From: Olavius algarvensis Gamma 3 endosymbiont
GTDB lineage: Bacteria; Pseudomonadota; Gammaproteobacteria; GCA-001735895
Length of the DNA stretch: 32,326 bases
Assembly: GCA_001735895.1 (NCBI GenBank)
Contig: DS021198.1
Coordinates: 1,406,045 to 1,438,370, forward strand
Reading direction: 5' to 3'
The position numbers and the translations under genes are program-made. Within the stretch, counting starts at the first letter, position 1. Each line of letters starts with the position of its first letter. The notes beneath the pieces were generated by a model that did no database searches, was not told the DNA's origin, and saw only the letters and a list, made by a program, of their open reading frames with translations. Shown piece by piece: positions 2,807 to 32,053 of this stretch.

Positions 2807-4063
2807 ATGTTCACCAAATCAATGAATATTGCCGACTTCGATGCGGATCTGTGGCAGGCGATGGAAGACGAAGCAAAGCGCCAGGAAGATCATATCGAAC
2901 TGATCGCGTCCGAAAATTACACCAGTCCACGGGTGATGCAGGCGCAGGGTTCAGTGCTCACCAATAAATACGCCGAGGGTTATCCCGCCAAGCGTTACTA
3001 CGGTGGCTGCGAGTATGTCGACGTCGCGGAAGTACTCGCGCTCGAACGGGTTAAAAAAATCTTTAATGCGGATTACGCCAACGTGCAGCCGCACTCGGGG
3101 TCGCAGGCCAACGCGGCGGTATTTTTCGCGCTATTGAATGCCGGCGATACCGTGCTCGGCATGAGCCTGTCGGACGGCGGCCACCTGACGCACGGCGCCA
3201 AGGTCAACTTTTCGGGCAAGCTGTTCAATGCGGTCCAGTACGGCTTGAACAACGATACCGGAGAAATCGACTACGAGCAGGTCGAAGCACTGGCCAAAGA
3301 ACACCAGCCGAAGATGATCATCGCCGGTTTCTCGGCTTATTCGCGCATCATGGATTGGCAGCGTTTTCGCGATATTGCGGATTCGGTCGGCGCCTATTTG
3401 TTCGTGGATATGGCTCACGTCGCCGGTCTGGTGGCAGCGGGCCTCTATCCCAGTCCAGTCGGCATCGCCGATGTATGCACCAGCACCACCCATAAAACCC
3501 TGCGTGGACCGCGCGGTGGAATCATTTTGGCAAAGGCCAACGCGGAGATCGAAAAGAAACTCAATTCGATGGTTTTTCCGGGTACCCAGGGCGGCCCGCT
3601 GATGCACGCCGTCGCTGCCAAGGCGGTCGCTTTCAAGGAAGCCATGGGCGATGATTTTGTCGATTATCAGAAGCAGGTGCTGGTAAACGCCAACGCGATG
3701 GCCGAAGAGTTCATCAAGCGCGGTTTCGATGTAGTTTCTGGCGGAACCGATAACCACCTGTTCCTGTTGTCGCTGATCAGTAAGGGGATTACCGGTAAGG
3801 ATGCCGATGCTGCTATGAGCAAGGCGCATATTACGGTTAACAAGAATTCGGTGCCGAACGATCCGCAGTCGCCGTTCGTGACCTCGGGCCTGCGCATCGG
3901 TTCGCCCGCGATCACTACGCGCGGTTTCAACGAGCAGGATTCCCGCGACCTGGCCAATTGGATGAGCGATATACTCGACGATATGGGAAATGAAGATTTG
4001 ATCGCAACCGTCAGATCAAAGGTCAGCGATATCTGCGCCCGTCTGCCGGTTTACCGGAATTAA
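2807..4063 (+). CDS. glyA: serine hydroxymethyltransferase
   Basis: [60 protein letters not shown]... is the canonical GlyA N-terminus. Start chosen at the ATG at 2807 rather than the upstream ORF start at 2735. Confidence 0.95.
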
Positions 4064-4075
4064 AGCCGACGCATT

Positions 4076-4579
4076 ATGAAATGTCCTTTCTGCGGTACGC
4101 CCGATACGCGCGTGGTCGATTCGCGCCTCGCGTCGGAATCGGCCCAGGTGCGCCGCAGAAGGGAATGCGTGTCCTGCGAAACACGTTTCACTACTTACGA
4201 AGCGCCATTGCTGAACATGCCGATGGTGATCAAAAACGACGGCAGCCGTGACGCTTTCGATGAGATGCGGTTACGCAGCGGCATGATGCGCGCGCTGGAA
4301 AAGCGCCCGGTGTCGGCGGAGCAGATCGAAGACGCCATCAATCACATCAAACGCCAGCTGGTCGGCATCGATACCCGGGAAATATCGTCGCGCGAAATCG
4401 GCGCCATGGTGATGCACGAGTTACAGCGGGTCGACCAGGTCGCTTATATTCGATTCGCCTCCGTCTATCTGAGCTTCGAGGACATCCAGGCTTTCGAGGA
4501 AGCCATCCAAACCCTGGCCGCCGAACCAACCCCCGAAGAGCACCGTCGGCAAGTCCCCTTGATCGATGAGGAGAGCTGA
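4076..4579 (+). CDS. nrdR: transcriptional repressor NrdR (zinc ribbon + ATP-cone)
   Basis: MKCPFCGTPDTRVVDSRL...CETRFTTYE is the canonical NrdR N-terminus. The stop overlaps the ribD start (TGATG). Confidence 0.9.
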   Translation: MKCPFCGTPDTRVVDSRLASESAQVRRRRECVSCETRFTTYEAPLLNMPMVIKNDGSRDAFDEMRLRSGMMRALEKRPVSAEQIEDAINHIKRQLVGIDTREISSREIGAMVMHELQRVDQVAYIRFASVYLSFEDIQAFEEAIQTLAAEPTPEEHRRQVPLIDEES

Positions 4580-5694
4580 TGTCGCGGCAACAGCATCATC
4601 GTTGGATGGCGCAAGCGCTGCAACGGGCGCGTAAGGGATTTTACAGCACCCATCCCAATCCGCGCGTCGGCTGTGTGATTGTCAAGAACGGTAGGATGCT
4701 TGGCGCCGGCTGGCATGAATTCAGCGGCGGCCCGCATGCGGAAGTTAACGCAATTGCAGCGGCCGAGATTCCGGCCGGCGCCGATTTTTATGTTACCCTG
4801 GAACCCTGTTCTCACCACGGCCGCACGCCGCCCTGCGTCGACGCGCTTATCGCCGCCGGCGCGGCGCGGGTGATCGTCGCGATGCAGGATCCGAACCCCG
4901 AGGTCAGCGGGCGCGGGCTCGAGCAGTTGCGCGCCGGCGGCATCGAGGTAATCACCGGCGTACTCGAGTCGCAGGCGCGGGAGCTCAACCGCGGATTTAT
5001 AAAACGTATGGAGCGACAGCTGCCTTTTGTCAGCGTAAAAATGGCATTGTCCCTCGACGGCCGCAGCGCACTGGCAAACGGCGCCAGTAAATGGATTAGC
5101 GGCGAACCAGCGCGGCGTGACGTACAATTCCTGCGCGCTCGGGCCTCGGCCATTCTGAGTTCTTCGCAGACGGTGCTGGACGACGATCCATCTCTAAATC
5201 TGCGGCTGTCGAATCAGGAGTTAGGTCAGACACGGGAAGCGCGGCAGCCCATCCGGGTGCTGGTGGATTCCAAACTGCGCTTGAGCGGTCGGGAAAAAGT
5301 GTTTTCCAGCGCGGGCGAGATCTGGATTTATACTTGCAGCGACGATGCCGAGCGCAAGCATCGATTGCTCGAGCGCGGCGCGCAGGTGATCGAGATGACA
5401 GCGTCTGAGACGGGCGGGTTAAAGCTGAGTGCGATGCTGCAAGATATGGCCGCGCGCGGTATCAACGAAGTGCATACCGAATGCGGCAGCCGCCTCGCGG
5501 GCGCGCTGATCGAGCAGCGACTGGCCGATGAAATGATACTTTACCTGGCGCCGCATCTACTGGGTAGCCGGGCGCGCGGCGGATTCGACCTGGGCGAGCT
5601 GACCGCCATGGATCAGCGCAGGTCCTGTCGCATTTGCGATACCCGCCGGATTGGTGAGGATTTACGCTTGACCTTGAACTTCGAACAGGATTAA
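4579..5694 (+). CDS. ribD: bifunctional riboflavin biosynthesis protein RibD (pyrimidine deaminase / reductase)
   Basis: CMP/dCMP-deaminase zinc motifs (HAEVNAI, PCSHHGRTPPC) plus the C-terminal RibD reductase domain. Lies in the conserved nrdR-ribD synteny. Confidence 0.9.
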   Translation: MSRQQHHRWMAQALQRARKGFYSTHPNPRVGCVIVKNGRMLGAGWHEFSGGPHAEVNAIAAAEIPAGADFYVTLEPCSHHGRTPPCVDALIAAGAARVIVAMQDPNPEVSGRGLEQLRAGGIEVITGVLESQARELNRGFIKRMERQLPFVSVKMALSLDGRSALANGASKWISGEPARRDVQFLRARASAILSSSQTVLDDDPSLNLRLSNQELGQTREARQPIRVLVDSKLRLSGREKVFSSAGEIWIYTCSDDAERKHRLLERGAQVIEMTASETGGLKLSAMLQDMAARGINEVHTECGSRLAGALIEQRLADEMILYLAPHLLGSRARGGFDLGELTAMDQRRSCRICDTRRIGEDLRLTLNFEQD

Positions 5695-19292: not shown

Positions 19293-19310
19293 GATTCTGT
19301 TGAAAAACTC
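19293..19310. repeat. IS left terminal inverted repeat
   Basis: Perfect 18-bp reverse-complement match with 20850-20867. Confidence 0.8.
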
Positions 19311-19371
19311 TCGATTATGACTCGGCCATGAGATAATCGAGTTCGGTATCCACTTCATTAGGAAGTCTCCC

Positions 19372-20739
19372 ATGATGGGACAACTACCGGCGCAGCAGAA
19401 CGCATTGTTTTACGAGTTTTGCCTGGAAAAGCACATTCCAGACGAGCATCTTCTCCGCCAGATAGATCAGTTTCTCGACTTTGATCAAACCCGTGTCCAC
19501 CTTGACCCCTTTTATAGCCATACCGGCAGGCCGTCGATTGATCCTGAGCTCATGATTCGGATGTTATTGGTCGGCTATTGTTACGGCATCCGGTCAGAGC
19601 GACGGTTATGTGACGAGATCCGATACAACCTGGCCTACCGTTGGTTCTGTCGTTTGGGTTTGGAAGATAAAGTACCGGATCATTCAACATTTTCCAAGAG
19701 CCGGCATGGCCGCTTCCGGGATGCTGACCTGCTGAGACTGGTCTTTGATACGGTGGTGCAGCGCTGTAACGATGAAGGGCTCATCAAAGGCGAAGGCTTC
19801 GCCACCGATGCCAGCTATATCAAAGCCGATGCTTCCCGGCAGCGTATGGCCGATGGTCCGGTTGACTGGCAACCATCACCCACACAGTCACGGGCGGTAA
19901 GAGAATATCTGGATGCGCTAGACAACGATCCTTCAGCAACAAGAACACAGAAGAAAGTGTCTACCACCGATCCGATGGCACAGTGGGCGGGCGACAAAGG
20001 ACCAGGCCAGTTTTATTACAGCACCAATTACCTGATCGATATTGAACACAATGTCATCATGGATGTCGAGCCTACACCGGCTTATCGAATCGCTGAGGTC
20101 AGTAGCACTCGAACCATGATTGACCGGGTCGAAGAGAAACTGGCAATCAAACCTGAACGACTCATAGCCGATACCTCTTATGGCTCTGCGGAGATGCTGG
20201 ATTGGGTGGTGGAGCAAAAACAGATAGAGCCGCATATTCCGGTTTGGGATAAGTCTCACGGTAAACCGGGCATGTTTGGTCGGGCTGCATTCACCTGGGA
20301 TAACGAAGCCGATTGTTATTATTGCCCGGCGAACAAGCTACTGAGATGCAGAAATCGCCCATTCAAAAAACCGCGTTCACCCGTTACCAAAGCCAACACG
20401 ATTATCTATCGCTCAAGTCAGCATGACTGTAAAACCTGCGAACTTAAATATACTAGCCACAGAAAGATCGCCCGTAGTATCTATGAATCATCTCGTGACG
20501 TTGCCAGGGATATTTGCGAGACCACGGAATATTTACAATCCAGGAAAGACAGAAAAAAGGTTGAAGTGCTGTTCGCCCATCTTAAGCGAGTAATGAACTT
20601 TGACCGTTTACGATTGCGCGGTATCACTGGCGCACATGACGAATTTTTACTGGCAGCCACAGCGCAAAACCTGAAGAAGTTGGCGCAACAACGATTTAAA
20701 CCGCCTGATTACAGGATAGGTGCGCCTGCTTTATGCTAA
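19372..20739 (+). CDS. IS5-superfamily (IS1182-like) DDE transposase
   Basis: 455-aa product with an InsH-type N-terminal region (…LLRQIDQFLDFDQTRVHLDPFYSHTGRPSIDPELMIRMLLVGYCYGIRSERRLCDEIRYNLAYRWFC…), a DDE core, and a C-terminal Cys cluster (CYYCPANKLLRCRNRPF…CKTC). Confidence 0.85.
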   Translation: MMGQLPAQQNALFYEFCLEKHIPDEHLLRQIDQFLDFDQTRVHLDPFYSHTGRPSIDPELMIRMLLVGYCYGIRSERRLCDEIRYNLAYRWFCRLGLEDKVPDHSTFSKSRHGRFRDADLLRLVFDTVVQRCNDEGLIKGEGFATDASYIKADASRQRMADGPVDWQPSPTQSRAVREYLDALDNDPSATRTQKKVSTTDPMAQWAGDKGPGQFYYSTNYLIDIEHNVIMDVEPTPAYRIAEVSSTRTMIDRVEEKLAIKPERLIADTSYGSAEMLDWVVEQKQIEPHIPVWDKSHGKPGMFGRAAFTWDNEADCYYCPANKLLRCRNRPFKKPRSPVTKANTIIYRSSQHDCKTCELKYTSHRKIARSIYESSRDVARDICETTEYLQSRKDRKKVEVLFAHLKRVMNFDRLRLRGITGAHDEFLLAATAQNLKKLAQQRFKPPDYRIGAPALC

Positions 20740-20849
20740 ATCCGATCAAAAGCAACTAAACCAGAACAAAATCCACGAAAAATGTGGATTACCGAAGTGA
20801 TCCAATCATCGCCGTGATTTGGTGCGCGGAAATCGGCCATTTAATAACC

Positions 20850-20867
20850 GAGTTTTTCAACAGAATC
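20850..20867. repeat. IS right terminal inverted repeat
   Basis: Perfect 18-bp reverse-complement match with 19293-19310. Confidence 0.8.
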
Positions 20868-21981
20868 GGCATGTCGCGGTCATTCGCAGCAATATCAAGA
20901 CGACCACGGAAGTTTGCCCGGATCCGGCCAAATCGTTTGGCACCGCCGATAAGAGTGTCGCCCTGCCGCTGGTGCCCAAGGGTTGCGTTGGCGTCTGGGA
21001 AGAGCCGATTCCGCCGGGCCGTTATTACCTCAATGAAAAAGCGTTTGTTACCACCATCATTCCGACGCGGTTGCAGACTTGGGTTTATAAGGGTGGTTAT
21101 ACCGCGCGCCGCATCAACCTGACGGTATCCGACGAAGGCAAGATTCAGCAAAAGGAAGTCTCGGAAGTGATCGCCGTGCCGAAAAACGCCGCCGACCGCG
21201 CCATCAATGTGCGCGTCGAGGGCTGGACCGTGCCGGTCGAAATGCGCGTCGTGGTCGCGGTGAATCCGGCAAACGCGGCCAAGGTAGTTGCCTCGGTAGG
21301 CGGCTTGAAGCAGGTTGAAGACAACATCATCACGCCGGTGATTCGCGATATCCTGCGCACCATCGGCGGTCATCGCGGCCGCAAGGTGCTAGATCTGGTA
21401 GAAAAGCGAGCCGAAATTGTCGCCGAAGTAGAGAAGGCGATCGTGCCGGAAGGTTTGAAGGCGGGAGTTACCATCCAGGAAGTTCGCATGGGTGAACCGG
21501 CAATTCCGCCCGAGCTTTTAGTGGCCACGCTGCGTGAACAATTGGCGATCCAGCTGCAGGCGACCTATAAGAAGGAACAGGATGCGCAACGCGAACGGAT
21601 CAAGGTCGAGCGCGAGCGCGCGACCGCCGATCAGCAGAAAGAGCTGGTGGCGGCCGAAATCCGTAAAAAGGCCGCCGAATTCACCAAGGAGCAACTGCGT
21701 TTGCTGGGTGAAGGTGAAAAGCTGAAGCTGCTCGAAATTGCCAAGGGTCAGGAGGCGCAGGCGCTGGTGCTGGGCAAGGAAGCCGCGTTGCAGCTAGCGG
21801 CGCTGGAAAAAGCGCTTGAAGCCGCCAAGGAGAATCACCGTATCGTCAAGGTGCCGACCGTGCAGGTCATCGGCGGCGAGGCCGGCAGTTTCGAAGGCGC
21901 CGCGGCAATTCTCGGTTCGTCCAATATCATCCAGGCCTTGCAGGGACTCGATAAAAAAGAGGCCAAGCAATAGTTAAAACA

Positions 21982-23346: not shown

Positions 23347-24183
23347 TTAGTTTTCCCCCGACGCTTTGCCCGGATTCGGCTCGATGCCGTAGTCGGTGCG
23401 CGTAACCCGATGTTCGCGCGTATATTTGCGGATGCTTCGATTCTTCGCGATCGACTCAGGGCGTGCATACCCGCGACCGTGATCGAGATGTACGCAGCTG
23501 CAACGATAGCGCACTTGCCGGGTTTTGAGGCCCAAGTTCATCAAGCGTTCGCCGAATTCGCGGTCCTGACCGCCATATTGCATGCGCTCGTCGAAGCCGT
23601 TGGTTTCGATAAAATGTTTTTTCCAGGTCGAAGAACTGTGCCCGTTCCAGGTGGCGCGCGTAATCGTCAAGGCGTCCAGGATCGCGCCCAGCAGCGGATG
23701 AGAATAGAGTTTTGCAATTTTCGGCGTGAAGGCTACGCCATGACGCAATAACCAGCCGGGCCGGGTGCAGTCGCCGCTGAGGATGTCCTGCTTGGAAATT
23801 GCGCGCGAGACATCGAGCGGCAGCTTGAAATAACCGCCCGACAAGAGGGTGTTTTCCGCCGCAAGCGTAACGTGGTTTTGGACGAATTCAGGGTGCGGGA
23901 TGCAGTCACCGTCGGTAAAGATCAGATACTCGCCGCGGCTCGCGACTATGGCTTTATTCATGATCCGGCATTTCTGAAAACCGTCATCCGCCTGCCAAAT
24001 GTGTTGAATCGGAATATCGATCTCAGTCTTGAGCCGCTCGACGACTTCACGCGTCTCTTCATTCGAGCCATCGTCGGCGACGATGATTTCGAAGTCGCGG
24101 TAGGACTGTGCCGAGAAGCCCCACAGGGTTTTTTCGAGCCACCGCGGATGGTTATAGGTTGTGAAGATTACCGAGGCAAACAT
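23347..24183 (-). CDS. glycosyltransferase family 2
   Basis: MFASVIFTTYNHPRWLEKTL…IIVADDGS…LIFTDGDC (GT-A DxD region). The start overlaps the stop of the upstream GT4 gene (TGATG). Confidence 0.8.
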   Translation of the reverse strand: MFASVIFTTYNHPRWLEKTLWGFSAQSYRDFEIIVADDGSNEETREVVERLKTEIDIPIQHIWQADDGFQKCRIMNKAIVASRGEYLIFTDGDCIPHPEFVQNHVTLAAENTLLSGGYFKLPLDVSRAISKQDILSGDCTRPGWLLRHGVAFTPKIAKLYSHPLLGAILDALTITRATWNGHSSSTWKKHFIETNGFDERMQYGGQDREFGERLMNLGLKTRQVRYRCSCVHLDHGRGYARPESIAKNRSIRKYTREHRVTRTDYGIEPNPGKASGEN

Positions 24184-25307
24184 CAACTGCACTCCGCGTA
24201 AATCGATTCCAGCCTGGCGCATTGGCGGCGCACATCGAAATCCTTCTCTACCCGTTCTCTGCCGGCAATTCCCATTTTGCGACGCAGGCTTGAATCTTCC
24301 AGCAGCTGCGCGATATTTTGCGTTAGCCCGGCCACGTCCTTTTCACCGCTCAACAAGGCCGTCCTACCCTCGTCAACCGCTTCGACCAGGCCTCCGCTGC
24401 GGAAACTGACCACCGGGGTTTGCAGCGCCTGGGCCTCGAGGAATACCATGCCAAGCCCCTCCGCGTCACCGCTCTCGGCGGTGATGCTGGGCGCGACAAA
24501 TAGCCAGCATCGCGCCAATTGCTGTCTAATTTCGGCGGCGCTGGCGGTGCCGGCGAATTCGACATTCAATTTTCGCTCCGATGCCTCCTGTTGCAGCACA
24601 GGTTTTAAATCGCCCTCGCCGATGATGGTGAGCCTCAGTTCAGGGAATCGTGGTTTCAATTGCTCCATCGCCTGCAGTAAATAGGTGCAGCCCTTTTTTT
24701 CCACCAGGCGCCCGACGAACAGCAGCGAGGGGTCGGCGGTTTCGTTTTTTTGCTGGGTAAATTTTTCCAGATCAATACCGATGTAATGTTGGACCAGTTT
24801 CGTCTTGGGGCAGCCGCGCGCGAGGGCCTGCTCGGCGATAAATTTGGATACGGCGATTACGCGATCGACCCGCTCGAAAAATCTTTGCGTCCGCCCACCG
24901 GCAAGTTTTGCGTTTTCGTATTTGGTGATGTCATGGCCATGAACCGTGGTGATGACCGGTAATTCGAGCTGCCTGCCCAACTGCAGTGCGTCGATGCCGT
25001 CGTTAAAAAAATGCGCATGAATCAGCTTAGGATGATACTGCTCGATTGCGCTAAGCCATCGCCGGTTGGCCGATAATCCCATGCGTAAGGCAAGCTTGCT
25101 GAGGGCCGGCGTCCGGCTAAACTCGGAAAGCAGAGCATGCGGTGCGTTTTCGATCATTGCCAGCCCCGAGGTATCCTCGCCAAAACCGCAAAAAACCGCC
25201 TGCATACCGGGAAGCAACAGCCCCTGATCGGCGATAAAGGTCTCCGAATAGGAAAGCAGGCGCTTACGAAATATAACCACACTGGGAGTCATGTATTTCT
25301 CAATCAA
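24183..25307 (-). CDS. glycosyltransferase family 4 (group 1 glycosyltransferase)
   Basis: 374-aa product with the GT-B C-terminal domain and an E-x7-E motif region (…GDAEGLGMVFLEAQALQTPVVS…). Confidence 0.8.
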   Translation of the reverse strand: MIEKYMTPSVVIFRKRLLSYSETFIADQGLLLPGMQAVFCGFGEDTSGLAMIENAPHALLSEFSRTPALSKLALRMGLSANRRWLSAIEQYHPKLIHAHFFNDGIDALQLGRQLELPVITTVHGHDITKYENAKLAGGRTQRFFERVDRVIAVSKFIAEQALARGCPKTKLVQHYIGIDLEKFTQQKNETADPSLLFVGRLVEKKGCTYLLQAMEQLKPRFPELRLTIIGEGDLKPVLQQEASERKLNVEFAGTASAAEIRQQLARCWLFVAPSITAESGDAEGLGMVFLEAQALQTPVVSFRSGGLVEAVDEGRTALLSGEKDVAGLTQNIAQLLEDSSLRRKMGIAGRERVEKDFDVRRQCARLESIYAECS

Positions 25308-25344
25308 TCCCGAATCTGAGAATCGAGGGTAAATTGTCGACCTA

Positions 25345-26343
25345 TTACGAGCATTTCAGACCCCTGCGAATTTTCCGAATTGCCAGTCGCATCTTGACAT
25401 ATCGGCTGAGCGATCGCAGATCCAGTTTATCTTTCAGGATCAGCCAGGGCAGTTGGATTTTCCACTTTTGGCAGCGTTGTTCGAGCACGGTTAATACTTC
25501 CCGGGCTTGATCCGGCGGCAGTTTGCGGGATTCGCGTGCGAGCTGAGTCATGGTGCGCACCATCAGGTTTTTGTGGGCTCGCAAATGAATCCGATTGCGG
25601 GCGAATTGCGCGGTGTCTTCGACTGCGCCAAGCCAGTCGAGATAAGAGCCCGACGAGAATTTGCGACCGGTTGATCCACTATCGTGATTGCGATACCGGT
25701 AGACGTTTTTATCGAGCAGAAATAACGATCTGGCATGCGCGAATACTTCACTACAGTAAAACAAATCCTGGGCCATGCGTACCCCCTCCGGAAACCGGAA
25801 GGCGCCTAGATGTTCACGCCGAAAAAGCTTGCCCCAAGGGTGCCCTCGTACCTTGTCGTGTTGGTACAGGGTGGTCAATACAGCATCGTTTTCCACAAGT
25901 TTCGGATGGCCGACGTTATACCTCGCCCCGGTTTCACGAGCCGCGGTAAAGATCGTGTTATTACCCTTGACTATGTCGACGTTAAACGCTTCGGCCGCCC
26001 GGTATAAGTCGGAAAATGCCCGCGGCGGCAGTACATCGTCGGGGTCTACGAACATGAAGTATTTGCCCGCGGCGCTCGCCAGTCCGCGATTGCGGGAGAT
26101 ACTGACGCCCATATTGGTCTCATTTTCGAAATAGCTAAAATCTGCAGCATGGTCCTTGATCCAATTACGGCATATCTCCCCGCTATTATCCGGAGAGCAA
26201 TCGTTAATCAGGATAACTTCATATGACGCGCCAAAATCCTGCCGCGCGATACTGTCAAGGCACTCTTGGACATAATCCGCAACCTTGTATACGGGTACGA
26301 TCACAGAAATGGCCGGGATGTCGCTGGTGCTACTTGCTTGCAT
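25345..26343 (-). CDS. glycosyltransferase family 2 (with a long C-terminal extension)
   Basis: MQASSTSDIPAISVIVPVYKVADYVQECLDSIARQ…ILINDCSPD…FVDPDD is the canonical GT2 N-terminus. Confidence 0.8.
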   Translation of the reverse strand: MQASSTSDIPAISVIVPVYKVADYVQECLDSIARQDFGASYEVILINDCSPDNSGEICRNWIKDHAADFSYFENETNMGVSISRNRGLASAAGKYFMFVDPDDVLPPRAFSDLYRAAEAFNVDIVKGNNTIFTAARETGARYNVGHPKLVENDAVLTTLYQHDKVRGHPWGKLFRREHLGAFRFPEGVRMAQDLFYCSEVFAHARSLFLLDKNVYRYRNHDSGSTGRKFSSGSYLDWLGAVEDTAQFARNRIHLRAHKNLMVRTMTQLARESRKLPPDQAREVLTVLEQRCQKWKIQLPWLILKDKLDLRSLSRYVKMRLAIRKIRRGLKCS

Positions 26344-26786: not shown

Positions 26787-27350
26787 ATGAATCTGGAAAA
26801 ATTCAAACCCTGGAACTGGTTCAAACACGAGGAAAGCGATAACGACGAAAAGCGGATACCGGTGAGCCGCGAGCGGGCCGTGGATCTGCCGCTTAGCCGC
26901 AGCGGATCGTTGTTTAGCCTGCATCGCGATATGGACCGCTGGTTCGACGATGCATTCGAATCCCTGGGTATGCCGGCACTGCAATCGCCGGCTATGGCTG
27001 GCGCCGGGCTGGCGGAATTTTATCGCCCGCAAATCGATATTTCGGCTGACGCCAACCGCTATCTGATCAATCTGGACGTGCCGGGATTGACCGAGTCCGA
27101 TTTATCGCTGGAGGTCGTTCGCGACGTATTGACCATCAAGGGTCAAAAAGAGGAAAAAAGCGAAGACAAGGATAAACATTACTATCGTATGGAACGCAGT
27201 TATGGGGCGTTTCAACGCACCCTGGCTTTGCCCGACGATGCCAACGCCGACGAAATAAAAGCCAAGCTCGATAAGGGCGTACTAAAGCTCGAAATCCCGC
27301 GGCGAACCACACTTGAGCAAGACGTCAAGCGCATTTCGATTGCAACTTAA
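26787..27350 (+). CDS. Hsp20/alpha-crystallin family small heat-shock protein
   Basis: 187-aa product with an alpha-crystallin domain (…INLDVPGLTESDLSLEVVRDVLTIKGQKEE…YYRMERSYGAFQRTLALP…LKLEIPR). AGGAG RBS present. Confidence 0.85.
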   Translation: MNLEKFKPWNWFKHEESDNDEKRIPVSRERAVDLPLSRSGSLFSLHRDMDRWFDDAFESLGMPALQSPAMAGAGLAEFYRPQIDISADANRYLINLDVPGLTESDLSLEVVRDVLTIKGQKEEKSEDKDKHYYRMERSYGAFQRTLALPDDANADEIKAKLDKGVLKLEIPRRTTLEQDVKRISIAT

Positions 27351-27363
27351 ATCCTGGTTTACT

Positions 27364-27388
27364 AGACCGGTCGCCCGTCGGCCGGTCT
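27364..27388 (+). terminator. weak candidate terminator after hsp20
   Basis: AGACCGG…CCGGTCT 7-bp stem with an 11-nt loop. There is no clear T-tract. Confidence 0.25.
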
Positions 27389-27514
27389 GTATTGTCGCGG
27401 GGGAAAAGAAACGGGGGAGTGTCATCTAACGTGATCCGTTAAACTGGCAACTCGTTTTGGAGTATCGTGGTATGTTAAACCAGAGGTCGATACCCGGCCT
27501 GAACAGGCTGTGAT

Positions 27515-28174
27515 ATGGAACCTCAATCTCGACCCGACACCGCCGCCGACGCACGGCGTCTGCGAATTGCATTCGGCATCGCGGTTGCGCTCGTGATGCT
27601 GCTGTGGATGGTGAAGATTATCGAGGTCGCCGGCGGTCTCGATTTTACCCGATTCGGCATCTATCCGCAGTCTCTCGGTGGCCTCGCGGGGATAATTTTT
27701 GCGCCTTTTATCCATGCTTCCTTTGCGCATTTGTTTGCCAATACCGCGCCGTTTATCGTGATCGGCACAATGCTGTCCTACGGTTATCCGCGCGCATTCA
27801 AACTGCTGCTGCCGAGTCTCTACCTCGGCGGCGGCGCGGCGGTGTGGATGTTTGCGCGCGAGGCTTATCACATCGGCGCCAGCGGAATTGTTTTCGGCAT
27901 GTTGTTCTTCGTTCTGACGATCGGGATCCTGCGCTGGGACCGACGTGCCATCGCCCTTTCGATGGTGGTTTTTTTACTCTACGGCGGCATGGTATGGGGT
28001 GTTTTGCCGACGCTCGAGGAGATTTCCTTCGAGTCGCATTTGAGCGGCGGTTTAATCGGCCTGGTGTTGGCCTTCCTGCTTAAAAATCGTGATCCCGAGC
28101 CGCCCCGCAAACGGTACAGCTGGGAGTTGGAGGAGGCGGAGACCGACGACTTCGACTGGCCGGATCGCCTCTAG
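27515..28174 (+). CDS. rhomboid-family intramembrane serine protease
   Basis: Six TM segments. Catalytic GASG (…HIGASGIVFGML…) and His in …ESHLSGGLIGLVLAF…. Confidence 0.75.
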   Translation: MEPQSRPDTAADARRLRIAFGIAVALVMLLWMVKIIEVAGGLDFTRFGIYPQSLGGLAGIIFAPFIHASFAHLFANTAPFIVIGTMLSYGYPRAFKLLLPSLYLGGGAAVWMFAREAYHIGASGIVFGMLFFVLTIGILRWDRRAIALSMVVFLLYGGMVWGVLPTLEEISFESHLSGGLIGLVLAFLLKNRDPEPPRKRYSWELEEAETDDFDWPDRL

Positions 28175-28299: not shown

Positions 28300-29319
28300 T
28301 TAAGTCTCGCAGGGGATCTTGCCGTCGGGAATTTGCGGGCATAGTTTGACTATCACCTGCAGTGAATCGAGACTGGCCGCGCCGACGAACTTTATCGGGA
28401 TGTCGGGAAACCGATTAGACAGCTGGCGCTGAATTTCACGAACCTTTTCCATGACCTGTGGCGAGGTGGAGTAATAGAGTATTTCCTGCCGATCGGTTCT
28501 GACGTTGGCAATATCGTCTTGATCAATAATGAAGCCTTTATCGAACAGAACTTGCTCAATTAATTTTAAATTGTTGCGATAGAGAACGGGTTCTTCTTCA
28601 CGATAATGCACGATAATTCGAAAGCGGCTGTTTTCGAGTTTCCTTATATTCTCAATTATCGCTTCGGCCTGAACCAGGTTTGACTCGGTATCCTCTTTCA
28701 GTGAATTGATCTCGGCAATCTTGGTTTCCAGGGTTAACTGATAGTCGCCGATTTTTTCGGTATTGATCTGGCTGAGTTTCGTCAGCTTCTCATCAATTGC
28801 GGCATCCGCCGATTCGAATTTATCGTCGATTTCAGTTTTACGCTGATTCAGATCGCGCGTGATCTCGGCAAACAGTTTTTCGTTTTCAAGTTTGCTTCGG
28901 TTCATCGCCTGCAGACTGGTTTTCAGGCTATCCGTGATGGTCGTTTCGCTGGTCTTTACCAATGCGCGGTAATCCTTAGCCGCGTCAAAACCGCTGAAGC
29001 CGGCATAGGCAAGTACTCCCAACAACAGGGTAAGTGCGGTAGTACCGGCGGCAAACTGGACCTTGGCCCACTTGGTCGCTTTTTCCTGGAAGGCCTCGAG
29101 CAACTCCAGTTTGATTTTCAACGCCTCCGCATTTGCCGCCTCACTGAATTCCTTGCGGATACGATGACTCTCCTCGACTAGCGACTGATTATCAAGGGCC
29201 GTCGGCGGCAAGCCCTGATCCAGCGGATGGCCGCATTGATTGCAGTGTCGGCTGGCCGCTGGATTTTCGTGATGGCAGTGAGAGCAGGTCGGGTTCATCT
29301 GGCTACTCCTGTGGTTCAC
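28300..29319 (-). CDS. hypothetical membrane protein: N-terminal Zn ribbon, one TM helix, long coiled coil, C-terminal alpha/beta domain
   Basis: CSHCHHENPAASRHCNQCGH (two CxxC pairs); TM helix TALTLLLGVLAYAGFSGF; heptad-rich segment …KLFAEITRDLNQRKTEIDDKFESADAAIDEKLTKLSQINTEKIGDYQLTLETKIAEINSLKEDTE…. Overlaps the upstream lipoprotein gene by 17 nt. Confidence 0.5.
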   Translation of the reverse strand: MNHRSSQMNPTCSHCHHENPAASRHCNQCGHPLDQGLPPTALDNQSLVEESHRIRKEFSEAANAEALKIKLELLEAFQEKATKWAKVQFAAGTTALTLLLGVLAYAGFSGFDAAKDYRALVKTSETTITDSLKTSLQAMNRSKLENEKLFAEITRDLNQRKTEIDDKFESADAAIDEKLTKLSQINTEKIGDYQLTLETKIAEINSLKEDTESNLVQAEAIIENIRKLENSRFRIIVHYREEEPVLYRNNLKLIEQVLFDKGFIIDQDDIANVRTDRQEILYYSTSPQVMEKVREIQRQLSNRFPDIPIKFVGAASLDSLQVIVKLCPQIPDGKIPCET

Positions 29320-30209
29320 CAGCCGGGCTAGTCGATTCTAGGGAAGCTTGATGCACGCACTTGCGGCGCTCGCTTGGGGATTCGGATGCGGAATTCCTGG
29401 TCTCTGGGCTGAACTGGTAATTCTGTTTGATGAATAACATGCCGCGGATATCGAACAACTTAACCTGGTGGTTTAAATCGTCGATTGTGAGGTCTCCAAT
29501 CCGTTCCACGATCGGATCGTATTTATTATCTTTGTCCAAATCTAGATACACCGGGTGTTGTTTGCTGTAATCGATAGAAAATGCCTTGTCGGCGGCGTTG
29601 GTCGTGTCGATCATCAGATCATGGCGTACGAGGATATCCTTGAAATAGGTGGTTTTTCCCGGAATACGGGCGATATACAGGCGGTTATCCAGCGCCAGGC
29701 AGCCCCCGGCAATCGTTTTAATTGAGAAGCGTTGTGGGGCTACGTGAAAATCACCGCTGATCAGAATTGCCCCGGTCTTGTCACGAATCGCAAAATACCG
29801 TCCGGAACCTTCCAATACAATTTTTTCGAGGTCCAGGGGGGTCGAGATAAATATTGAAATTGAACAATCCCTCCATGTGAATATCCCCGCTCAGGAGTTC
29901 CTCACGAACCGAGCTGACGCCATAGAGGTTTTTGATGAGCTGCCAGTTTTTCGCGCCGATTAAATTTATAAAAATCGAATCCATGCGCCGGTCGAGTTCA
30001 TCTTCGCGCCGGCGGGACTCGAGTTTTGCGATAGCGGGTGTATCGATGCGGAAATTAAGGGTGAATTTTTCGGACTGTGAAATGCGCGCCGTTTGAATCG
30101 GAATCTGGCGCCAGATTTCCAGGTTCTCGGTGGCGCATGCGCTGAGTTGCAGCAAAATCGCGAGCAGCAGCCAGGGTTTCATATGGCGTAAAAAATCAAT
30201 CACGGGCAT
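29303..30209 (-). pseudogene. lipoprotein gene (lipobox LSAC) whose frame is broken at a C6/A6 homopolymer tract; two ORF pieces 29781..30209 and 29303..29815
   Basis: The N-terminal piece MPVIDFLRHMKPWLLLAILLQLSAC… carries a signal peptide plus lipobox. Reading the C6 tract (plus 29836-29841) as C5 makes …NIYLDPLDLEKIVLEGSGRYFAIRDK… continuous into the 170-aa ORF. Confidence 0.5.
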
Positions 30210-30637
30210 CCCTTAACTCCTGTATCGGGCCGGCCATTCCGCTGCAATGCGTCCACAGCCTGGACAAATGTCAGAATGAATCGGTAAATGATTGCCGCCC
30301 ATACTAGAAGCAATATCCACAAGATTCAATGCCTTTACCGAAATGCGGATGCTATAAGGGGAGGTTTACAATATCGGGGCGATGCCCGCGCGCATCTTGA
30401 AAAGATGCGCTACACAAAATCGCGAAAATGTCTGAAATGACAACTGCGCTACCAGTAATTGATTCGGGATGTGTGTCGCTAGATCTCGAGAAATCCCCGC
30501 TCTTTATCGATCTTGCCCGTGTTCGAGAGAAAAGCATCACATAGTGCGATTCAACAGTCGAACGCGATTAAAATGTGGCCGAGCCTCAAGATTGATGGAA
30601 TTATATTTAGTGGCGCCGACGGTTAGTCCTGTCTTAT

Positions 30638-31630
30638 TTGCATGCGAAAAATATCTCCAGTAGGCTAGTTGTACGAGCCCGCTTCCTACAGAGTTTTCTA
30701 AATCAAGACGCTACGGAGAATTACTGGTTGCAATTACTTATTTTGATATCAGTTGTACTATTGACCCTAATATCCAGTTCGTTGGCTCGAGCTGGCGAGC
30801 ATATGACTTGCAATGCAACGGATAATTATAAGTCAGCAGCTTCGAGCTTATTTGCTCTGCAGGAACCCTTGTTTGAAAATACGGGCGAATATCAGCAATG
30901 GGTAAATCGCTGTTTATTACCCTTAAGCGAATATGAACGTAGCCGACAAGCTTATTTTGCGATCGACGTTCGCGATTCGAAATCGTATTCGAGAAATCAC
31001 ATTCGCCAGTCAATAAATATGCCATTGCATGCGGTTAAGTCAAAGTCATTTCTGAAAAATAAAAAAATCCTGTTATTAGATGAGGGTGTCGAACGGGCCA
31101 GATTGATCTACGCCTGTAAGCAACTTTTCGAAACCGGGTATCCCAATGTAAAAGTCCTTCAAGGCGGCATAATCGGATTGCAAAATAACGCGAAAAATGA
31201 ACTCAAGTTTAATAAAGCAGAAGGCATTTATAGCTTAACTCCAGGAAAGCTAATTTTTGATCAACGCTACGAACCGTGGATTGTTGTAGATATTACCATC
31301 CAGCCTTCAAAGCGCCTGGTTCAATATTTCGATGCTATTTTCTCCTTTGACCAATATCCGGCAGCTAACCAGTTGCGGCATATATTTAATTCAGGGCAAT
31401 CGAATCCGACATCAGGCTCGTCGCCTTCCGTCATACTGATCGATAAAGCTGGGCAAGGTTACGAGCAATTCGAACTATGGCGAAATGAAATGTCGAGACT
31501 GCTCAAACGCGATAATATATTTTATTTACAAGGCGGCACTAAAGCCTTTGATGAATATGTAATACGGCAGCATGCTATGTTAAGAAAAAAAGAATTTGTG
31601 ATGAATAAGCCCAAAGGATGCGCGAGATGA
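30638..31630 (+). CDS. secreted/periplasmic protein with two tandem rhodanese-like domains lacking the catalytic cysteine; located in a low-GC islet
   Basis: Signal-like segment WLQLLILISVVLLTLISSSLARA. Domain 1: …AIDVRDSKSYSRNHIRQSINMP…KKILLLDEGVERARL…VKVLQGGIIG. Domain 2: …PSVILIDKAGQGY…FYLQGGTKAF. Asp/Lys replace the active-site Cys in both. The true start may be an upstream TTG. Confidence 0.55.
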   Translation: MHAKNISSRLVVRARFLQSFLNQDATENYWLQLLILISVVLLTLISSSLARAGEHMTCNATDNYKSAASSLFALQEPLFENTGEYQQWVNRCLLPLSEYERSRQAYFAIDVRDSKSYSRNHIRQSINMPLHAVKSKSFLKNKKILLLDEGVERARLIYACKQLFETGYPNVKVLQGGIIGLQNNAKNELKFNKAEGIYSLTPGKLIFDQRYEPWIVVDITIQPSKRLVQYFDAIFSFDQYPAANQLRHIFNSGQSNPTSGSSPSVILIDKAGQGYEQFELWRNEMSRLLKRDNIFYLQGGTKAFDEYVIRQHAMLRKKEFVMNKPKGCAR

Positions 31631-31759: not shown

Positions 31760-32053
31760 ATGACAACGAGAAAGAAATATACGAAAGAATTCAAACTGGA
31801 TGCAGTGAGCCTGGTAACTGATCAGGGCTACAGCCGGGCGGAAGCAGCGCGAAGCCTGGGCATCAATGCCAATATGCTGTGCCGATGGGTGCAAGAGGAA
31901 CAATCGGGTGATGGCCAGGCTTTCCGTGGGAACGGCAAGCTGACACCGGATCAGGAAGAGAACCGTCGACTTAAAGCTGAAATCAAACGCCTGAAGATGG
32001 AGAAAGAAATCTTAAAAAAGGCGACGGTATTCTTTGCAGCAGAAACGAAATGA
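31760..32053 (+). CDS. IS3-family transposase OrfA
   Basis: MTTRKKYTKEFKLDAVSLVTDQGYSRAEAARSLGINANMLCRWVQE…RRLKAEIKRLKMEKEILKKA is the canonical IS3 OrfA. Confidence 0.85.
   Translation: MTTRKKYTKEFKLDAVSLVTDQGYSRAEAARSLGINANMLCRWVQEEQSGDGQAFRGNGKLTPDQEENRRLKAEIKRLKMEKEILKKATVFFAAETK
32014..32020 (+). promoter_or_regulatory. programmed -1 ribosomal frameshift site A_AAA_AAG of the IS3-family element
   Basis: Heptamer AAAAAAG lies inside orfA, about 30 nt before its stop, upstream of the -1 frame orfB. Confidence 0.6.

Follow-up and report, generated by a model that had tools for sequence, protein, structure and literature searches.

A putative two-gene trans-envelope module, a barrel lipoprotein with a stalk-bearing LytR_C-like membrane protein, decaying in the Olavius algarvensis Gamma 3 endosymbiont

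Two adjacent genes and a recent frameshift

We analyzed a 32,326-nucleotide stretch of the genome of the Olavius algarvensis Gamma 3 endosymbiont (contig DS021198.1; hereafter the window, with positions counted from its first letter). The window mostly contains housekeeping genes, among them the nrdR-rib-nusB-thiL-pgpA region, gltX, and the gene for aconitase. According to the list of its open reading frames (ORFs), the minus strand also carries two genes side by side, which we call gene A (29303–30209) and gene B (28300–29298). Gene A encodes a lipoprotein of 301 amino acids, once a +1C frameshift is repaired. Gene B encodes a 332-amino-acid bitopic membrane protein that combines a putative zinc ribbon, a transmembrane (TM) helix, a helical stalk, and a C-terminal domain (CTD) with a LytR_C-like fold. 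Together, A and B form a previously undescribed module.

An original prediction, which was made from the sequence without database searches, had the two genes overlapping by 17 nucleotides. Both minus-strand genes are there, but the overlap is an artifact of starting gene B at the first in-frame GTG (29319), as in the listed ORF (28300–29319). The start called in close relatives is the ATG at 29298, and every homolog of B begins with M-x-x-x-C. Because B starts at this ATG, 4 nt past the stop codon of gene A (TAG, 29303–29305), the genes are separated by a 4-nt spacer. Reading the sequence also shows a ribosome-binding site for gene B, AGGAG at 29306–29310 on the minus strand, which lies 7 nt upstream of the ATG and abuts the stop of gene A. 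The spacing is tight at other loci as well, where the genes overlap by up to 4 nt or are up to 37 nt apart. Scans for promoters, terminators, and Rfam families around the pair found nothing on the coding strand.

As it stands, gene A is read as two ORFs: 29781–30209, which encodes 142 amino acids and includes the lipobox LSAC, and 29303–29815, which encodes 170 amino acids. Alignment with the loci L003–L008, which are six assemblies of a relative with 95–96% identity, shows that a one-base insertion in a homopolymer of six cytosines breaks the gene (C6 at 29836–29841 on the minus strand; G6 on the plus strand). Dropping one C from this run fuses the two halves into a protein of 301 amino acids, which is unbroken across the junction (NIYLDP-LDLEKIVLEGSGRYF) and aligns end to end with 18 homologs. 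This agrees with the prediction of a lipobox lipoprotein of about 300 amino acids after repair of the homopolymer.

The frameshift is genuine and fixed in this population, and is not a one-off read error, as JGI metagenome assemblies L014–L018 match the window with 100% identity over this region, including the C6 allele. The C6 allele is likewise present in L013/L024, and the 170-amino-acid fragment of A is recorded on 16 JGI contigs. In five of the six assemblies of the close relative (L003 and L005–L008), the run is C5 and gene A is an intact gene of 301 codons, so the inactivation in the window must be recent. The ratio of nonsynonymous to synonymous divergence (dN/dS) between the window and L003 leads to the same conclusion, as it is still low for gene A (0.15) and similar to that of the flanking rhomboid (0.18) and GT2 (0.19) genes. 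For gene B, dN/dS is 0.13. Overall, the module is decaying in the window's organism: A has been inactivated by the +1C insertion and B is still intact.

We rejected programmed frameshifting as the main explanation: the gene is uninterrupted in L003, L005–L008, and all of the more distant homologs. Occasional +1 slippage at the CCC-C run is conceivable but speculative.

Other breaks in these genes were seen elsewhere. In the sixth assembly of the close relative (L004, 1205–2109), a different C-run deletion, from C4 to C3, splits A into 197 and 103 amino acids as assembled. In L027 (5001–5631; JGI contig Ga0209122_1000053), which represents a strain with 97–98% identity from the same sample as L014, gene A breaks off after codon 112, with the end of an IS3 element a further 185 nt downstream. 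This disruption of gene A is the second, and is independent of the first. In L020 (6584–7530), gene B is split into 159 and 152 amino acids as assembled.

The pair is rare and is conserved together

Relatives of either protein are scarce. Among 5.8 billion proteins, word-indexed searches picked up 19 relatives of A and 11 relatives of B. When 1.84 billion cluster representatives were searched exhaustively with a profile, 94 A-type proteins came up, and 37 of these had E values below 1e-30. Among 185,579 species-representative genomes, just three encode A, and these are metagenome-assembled genomes (MAGs) from the Chromatiales, the Gammaproteobacteria, and the Thermodesulfobacteriota (28% identity).

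The two genes stay together: of the 15 distinct loci that were long enough to be assessed, 14 have A and B side by side, including distant ones with 28–37% identity. Gene A is followed by gene B in a Chromatiales MAG (L001/L011, with a 4-nt overlap) and in L003–L008, L009/L010, L019, L020, L022, and L026. The same order is seen in the distant loci L028/L029, L032, L033, L036, and L037, in which A is 31–37% identical to the query. In the Thermodesulfobacteriota MAG (L023; 28% identity for A), the order is reversed, with a B-type gene directly upstream of A. This gene encodes a 275-amino-acid membrane protein that has the same CTD (E = 1.4e-8 for a CTD profile that was built without it). The one exception among these loci is L035, in which transposase genes lie on either side of A. 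Five more pairs of A and B matches lie on contigs of identical length. The remaining flanking genes differ from locus to locus, so we consider the module to be the pair itself. The original prediction had treated the two genes as a module, and this census of gene neighborhoods bears that out: other genomes keep the two genes next to each other.

An orthologous lipoprotein of the alpha/beta-hydrolase type (with the motif GHSFGG; copies are 44–60% identical) is encoded divergently from A at six loci (L009/L010, L019, L020, L022, and L028/L030/L034), and could belong to the module as its third member. Its minus-strand positions are 6859–7845 in L009, 6865–7830 in L019, 4518–5447 in L020, 2682–3605 in L022, and 3326–4324 in L030. 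It has no specific equivalog in NCBIfam. We searched the window for a homolog of this hydrolase and found none.

Two other types of neighbors were seen at a few loci. Two unrelated loci, L011 (1–5607) and L020 (9459–13807), have contractile-injection or phage-tail-like genes (Baseplate_J, sheath, gp19 tube, and T4 baseplate) at most about 2 kb from the pair; this may be a coincidence. Also, GT2 and GT4 glycosyltransferase genes are found no more than about 2 kb away in the window (23347–26343), L001 (3867–4979), and L023 (8318–10777), which is too few to speak of enrichment.

In the window, the pair lies at the edge of an islet. Position 30345 marks where synteny with L003 stops; gene A, gene B, and the gene for rhomboid, all below it, are on the syntenic side. 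Beyond this boundary is a rhodanese-domain ORF (30638–31630) with an N-terminal hydrophobic segment and a GC content of 0.41, and then an IS3 element that begins at about 31724 (orfA at 31760–32053). L013 has IS3 at the same junction but in the opposite orientation. The GC content of the pair is 0.50, with 0.59 at third codon positions, which is mildly under the norm for the window. Because the synteny with L003 covers the pair and stops upstream of gene A, the pair borders the islet but sits on the conserved backbone side. The pair is thus beside a low-GC islet and an IS3 element, as had been predicted, but is not part of the islet.

Domains of the two proteins

The signal peptide of A ends in LLLAILLQ-LSAC after basic residues and conforms to the bacterial lipobox pattern of signal peptidase II substrates, [LVI][ASTVI][GAS]C, so lipidation is predicted. 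From the sequence, the lipobox (L-S-A-C) comprises residues 22–25 (30135–30146, minus strand), and its cysteine is invariant across all 33 of the aligned members of the family. The residue after the cysteine (position +2) is alanine, and none of the homologs has an aspartate there. By the +2 rule of E. coli, this suggests that A is sorted to the outer membrane.

The AlphaFold2 model of A, which was built from an alignment of 19 sequences, has a mean pLDDT (predicted local distance difference test) of 80 and a predicted template modeling score (pTM) of 0.72. After the signal peptide and lipobox, the model has a low-confidence linker with an invariant VPIQxAR motif, helices at residues 58–106, an eight-stranded meander barrel at residues 110–242, and C-terminal helices. 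The invariant polar residues of the family are E133, R137, Y214, H218, and D253. The motifs of the A family (VPIQxAR, NWQxLKDLYG, EGxGRYF, and KLxDLRG) match no Pfam model. More broadly, we found no Pfam or NCBIfam family for A, and a Pfam scan of 69 distant relatives of A was empty as well.

The core of A, an up-and-down eight-stranded barrel on a lipid anchor, is reminiscent of the small barrels of avidin-like and lipocalin-like proteins, YceI, Tp0435, SP_0198, and TbpB. Unlike these small lipoproteins and binders, A has additional helical regions at both its N and C termini, as well as motifs of its own. An integral eight-stranded barrel of the outer membrane (of the OmpA, OmpW, or PagL type) was ruled out by the lipobox and by the helical extension at the C terminus.

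B begins with a putative CxxC-x10-CxxC zinc ribbon (residues 5–22; 29233–29286, minus strand), which is predicted to be cytoplasmic. This assignment comes from Pfam, conservation, and Foldseek. The four cysteines (C5, C8, C19, and C22) are conserved in at least 90% of the homologs; the ribbon is missing from some of the distant partners (L023, L037, and probably L032). B's similarity to Pfam's zinc-ribbon families is below their cut-offs: DZR (PF12773) has E = 5e-5 and 23.8 bits, against a cut-off of 27.3, and Zn_Ribbon_1 (PF13240) has E = 2e-4 and 21.6 bits, against a cut-off of 25. Some homologs of B do have a precomputed match to PF13240. In structural comparisons, the ribbon resembles RanBP2-type zinc fingers (Foldseek probability of 0.90–0.98).

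The most conserved block of B is residues 63–104 (28987–29112, minus strand), as identified by conservation and hydropathy. It includes the juxtamembrane motif LExFQEKATKWxKxQF, with invariant residues K63, L67, E68, F70, K73–W77, Q81, and F82, and a single TM helix at about residues 82–104. Hydropathy peaks at residues 82–100, and this is the only hydrophobic segment. The juxtamembrane motif is still recognizable in the distant partners from L028, L032, L033, L036, and L037.

Residues 106–224 (28627–28983, minus strand) form a helical stalk, which is predicted to be periplasmic and is a putative coiled coil. AlphaFold2 places helices at residues 106–176 and 180–224, and the 119 residues include no proline and just one glycine. 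The hydrophobicity of the heptad a and d positions is higher than in shuffled sequences (14 of 500 shuffles reach the same value). The stalk is poorly conserved, with indels that vary its length among homologs of B.

The stalk leads to an alpha/beta CTD (residues 225–332; 28303–28626, minus strand), which contains a conserved pair of cysteines, C320 and C330. In the AlphaFold2 model of B, which used 12 sequences, a zinc ribbon occupies residues 1–28 and a long helix at residues 37–98 holds the conserved motif; the CTD is modeled at residues 225–320 with the order beta-alpha-beta-beta-alpha-beta-beta. The top structural matches of the CTD are both of the solved mycobacterial LytR_C solo-domain proteins. 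A LytR_C-like consensus that we composed finds 2m5y among the PDB sequences (E = 4.5e-9), with a weak match to 6q10 as well (E = 0.6). Pfam's LytR_C (PF13399) does not match full-length B at E values of up to 1. Because sequence-level membership fails, we call the modeled CTD LytR_C-like in fold and not a member of the family. The CTD is predicted to be extracytoplasmic and behind an N-terminal anchor, given the TM helix at about residues 82–104, the four-cysteine zinc site on its N-terminal side, and the pair of cysteines in the CTD.

The predicted sequence features of B, with a double-CxxC motif, one TM helix, a putative coiled coil, and a C-terminal alpha/beta domain, were borne out, with a helical stalk of about 120 residues. 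Also as anticipated, neither protein belongs to a family that we can name, and this includes housekeeping families: Pfam and NCBIfam gave no match for A, and only weak, sub-threshold matches to zinc ribbons for B.

Cysteines are distributed in parallel in the two proteins. C170 and C284 of A and C320 and C330 of B are jointly present in the gammaproteobacterial subfamily and jointly absent from the distant loci. This pattern would fit periplasmic disulfides in both proteins, but phylogenetically it counts as one event only.

Possible roles in the cell envelope

We tentatively favor the view that A and B make up a complete operon of just two genes, which encodes a trans-envelope module of Gram-negative bacteria. 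The original prediction had compared the topology to trans-envelope pairs, and the predicted features agree: an outer-membrane-type lipoprotein is paired with an N-in bitopic protein that has a periplasmic stalk and head. B would sit in the inner membrane, with the zinc ribbon and the conserved juxtamembrane helix on the cytoplasmic side, and its length-variable stalk of about 120 residues would carry the LytR_C-like head into the periplasm. A would be exported, lipidated at Cys25, and probably sent to the outer membrane (given the alanine at +2), with its barrel facing the periplasm. We infer that the head of B docks on A, on the adjacent cell wall, or on both. This would let the pair link the two membranes, or signal the state of the envelope to B's cytoplasmic part. 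In the many lineages that have it, the alpha/beta-hydrolase lipoprotein may act alongside the pair in the periplasm.

The closest analogy for the role of the module is with VirR (Rv0431) and Rv2700/Cei, which are the two LytR_C solo-domain proteins of Mycobacterium tuberculosis (PMC11832169). Both are TM-anchored and are needed for the impermeability of the envelope, and the LytR_C domain mediates protein-protein contacts (PMC11832169). They resemble B in layout: a membrane anchor at the N terminus, then an alpha/beta domain of about 90 residues outside the cytoplasm, and no catalytic LCP domain. (We did not find an LCP domain in B or in the neighboring genes at the loci that we examined; the remainder of these genomes was not searched.) As the described role of VirR and Cei is in envelope integrity and permeability, with a domain that binds proteins (PMC11832169), the role of the A–B module would, by analogy, be in envelope integrity or cell-wall homeostasis. 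There are also clear differences. B has no significant sequence similarity to VirR or Cei; it adds the cytoplasmic zinc ribbon, the conserved juxtamembrane motif, and the 120-residue stalk; it is found in diderm Proteobacteria and Thermodesulfobacteriota; and it always comes with a beta-barrel lipoprotein partner, while VirR and Cei have none.

Other envelope systems are similar to the pair in layout. In TolA-Pal and TonB, an inner-membrane anchor and a long periplasmic linker bring a small C-terminal alpha/beta head to an outer-membrane lipoprotein or receptor. However, none of the loci we examined has neighbors related to TolQR or ExbBD, and the TM helix of B (FAAGTTALTLLLGVLAYAGFSGF) lacks the conserved His/Ser motif and contains no histidine at all. 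The head also has another fold, with no TolA or TonB structure among the top matches of B, and A is a barrel lipoprotein rather than an OmpA-like peptidoglycan binder. The SPOR-containing bitopic proteins FtsN, DamX, and DedD share with B a short cytoplasmic N terminus, one TM helix, a long periplasmic linker, and a C-terminal domain of the beta-alpha-beta-beta-alpha-beta type. But B does not match SPOR in Pfam, no SPOR structure is among its top matches, and it is encoded with a dedicated lipoprotein partner.

Several observations count against our favored view, and some of them concern the head of B. The LytR_C assignment of the modeled CTD holds at the level of fold only: PF13399 matches just 1 of 17 CTDs (E = 0.18), a profile of the CTD finds nothing among the PDB sequences (neither 2m5y nor 6q10), and hhalign of the CTD to a fragment of 2m5y gives a probability of 2.5%, with the GF...N...YY motif in register. 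The whole-protein model of B has modest confidence (pLDDT of 71 and pTM of 0.39). Also, to our knowledge, the LytR_C domain itself has no known function. As for how the parts fit together, outer-membrane sorting of A is predicted from the +2 rule of E. coli, and contact between A and B is suggested by gene linkage only. The hydrolase neighbor is absent from the window and from L003, L001/L011, and L023, and where it is present, this could reflect inherited synteny among related gammaproteobacteria. Finally, breaks in A or B recur (in the window, L004, L020, and L027), which shows that at least some lineages can do without the module.

A more specific version of the trans-envelope module is that it is a new diderm apparatus, often including the hydrolase, in which a stalk-borne LytR_C-type domain docks on an outer-membrane barrel lipoprotein. 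We think that this version, with all of its parts, is doubtful. As far as we know, LytR_C domains had previously been described only in ligases for cell-wall glycopolymers and in VirR/Cei proteins from monoderm and mycolate bacteria.

Alternatively, the two proteins might be a signaling pair, with A as a sensor lipoprotein of the periplasm or outer membrane, comparable to RcsF, NlpE, or RseB. B would relay the signal across the membrane, and its juxtamembrane helix and zinc ribbon would sequester or recruit a cytoplasmic regulator, as an anti-sigma factor does. The overall arrangement is similar to that of RseA-RseB, RcsF-IgaA, and NlpE-CpxA, in which a barrel-type protein of the periplasm or outer membrane is paired with an inner-membrane protein that is conserved on both sides. 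Indeed, the conservation of B is highest on the cytoplasmic face (LExFQEKATKW and the four cysteines) and in the periplasmic head, with the stalk as only a spacer. The neighbors in this lineage include the envelope-stress genes for rhomboid and HSP20 (and, in the relative, DegP), and a hybrid histidine kinase and an HD-GYP-like protein are encoded near the pair in L020 and L022. On the other hand, there is no sequence or family match to the known pairs, and no sigma factor, two-component system, or other regulator is a conserved neighbor. In particular, no locus has an adjacent sigma factor gene, and B does not match any anti-sigma family in Pfam or NCBIfam. B's zinc ribbon is of the DZR/RanBP type and does not have the HxxxCxxC motif of ZAS proteins, and it is absent from the distant partners mentioned above. 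We consider a role in signaling to be unlikely.

Another alternative is that A, together with the hydrolase where it is present, processes or traffics a small hydrophobic molecule in the envelope instead of tethering the membranes, and that B is a scaffold or assembly factor. The eight-stranded barrel fold is shared by ligand binders such as avidins, lipocalin-like proteins, YceI, and Gid4; five polar residues of A are invariant in its family; and a serine-hydrolase lipoprotein recurs as a neighbor. But this neighbor is missing from about half of the distinct loci, and we consider ligand binding or lipid handling to be unlikely.

An accessory role in defence, toxicity, or adhesion on mobile DNA, which was raised in the original prediction, is very improbable: the pair adjoins a low-GC ORF and IS3, is sparsely distributed, and lies within about 2 kb of the contractile-injection or phage-tail-like genes in L011 and L020, but it is on the backbone side of the islet boundary, its dN/dS is low, and its flanking genes elsewhere are ordinary metabolic or envelope genes that differ by locus, rather than defence islands. 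Database scans pointed the same way, with only LmuB from PADLOC-DB 2.0 (E = 0.006, over the coiled-coil region of B) and nothing for A, no credible match for the pair in PHROGs, and no relatives of A or B on viral contigs.

Other genes of the window have been disrupted or lost as well. An insertion sequence (IS) at 19293–20867, with a DUF772/DDE_Tnp_1 transposase ORF at 19372–20739, lies inside a Band_7/SPFH gene. This gene is intact in L003 (558 amino acids), and the remnant in the window is an ORF of 384 amino acids (20819–21973). Also, L003 has a DegP/DegQ-like gene with Trypsin and PDZ domains between the genes for rhomboid and HSP20 (3961–5310). It is gone from the window, where about 165 nt of intergenic DNA (27350–27515) is found instead. 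The disruption of the SPFH gene, the loss of the DegP-like gene, and the loss of the module fit with gene decay in an IS-rich lineage.

For this genome, then, the implications are relatively modest: the module is being lost, just as the SPFH gene has been disrupted by an IS and the DegP-like gene deleted. For the family, more could follow. If A and B interact, they would be an unannotated module that spans the envelope, with one component that is absent from Pfam and NCBIfam and another whose architecture was undescribed. The LytR_C fold would extend to Gram-negative bacteria, and would come with a candidate binding partner. If the head of B does dock on A, this simple pair of partners would be a first handle on what LytR_C domains bind, and it could help explain how proteins of the VirR/Cei type maintain the integrity of the envelope.

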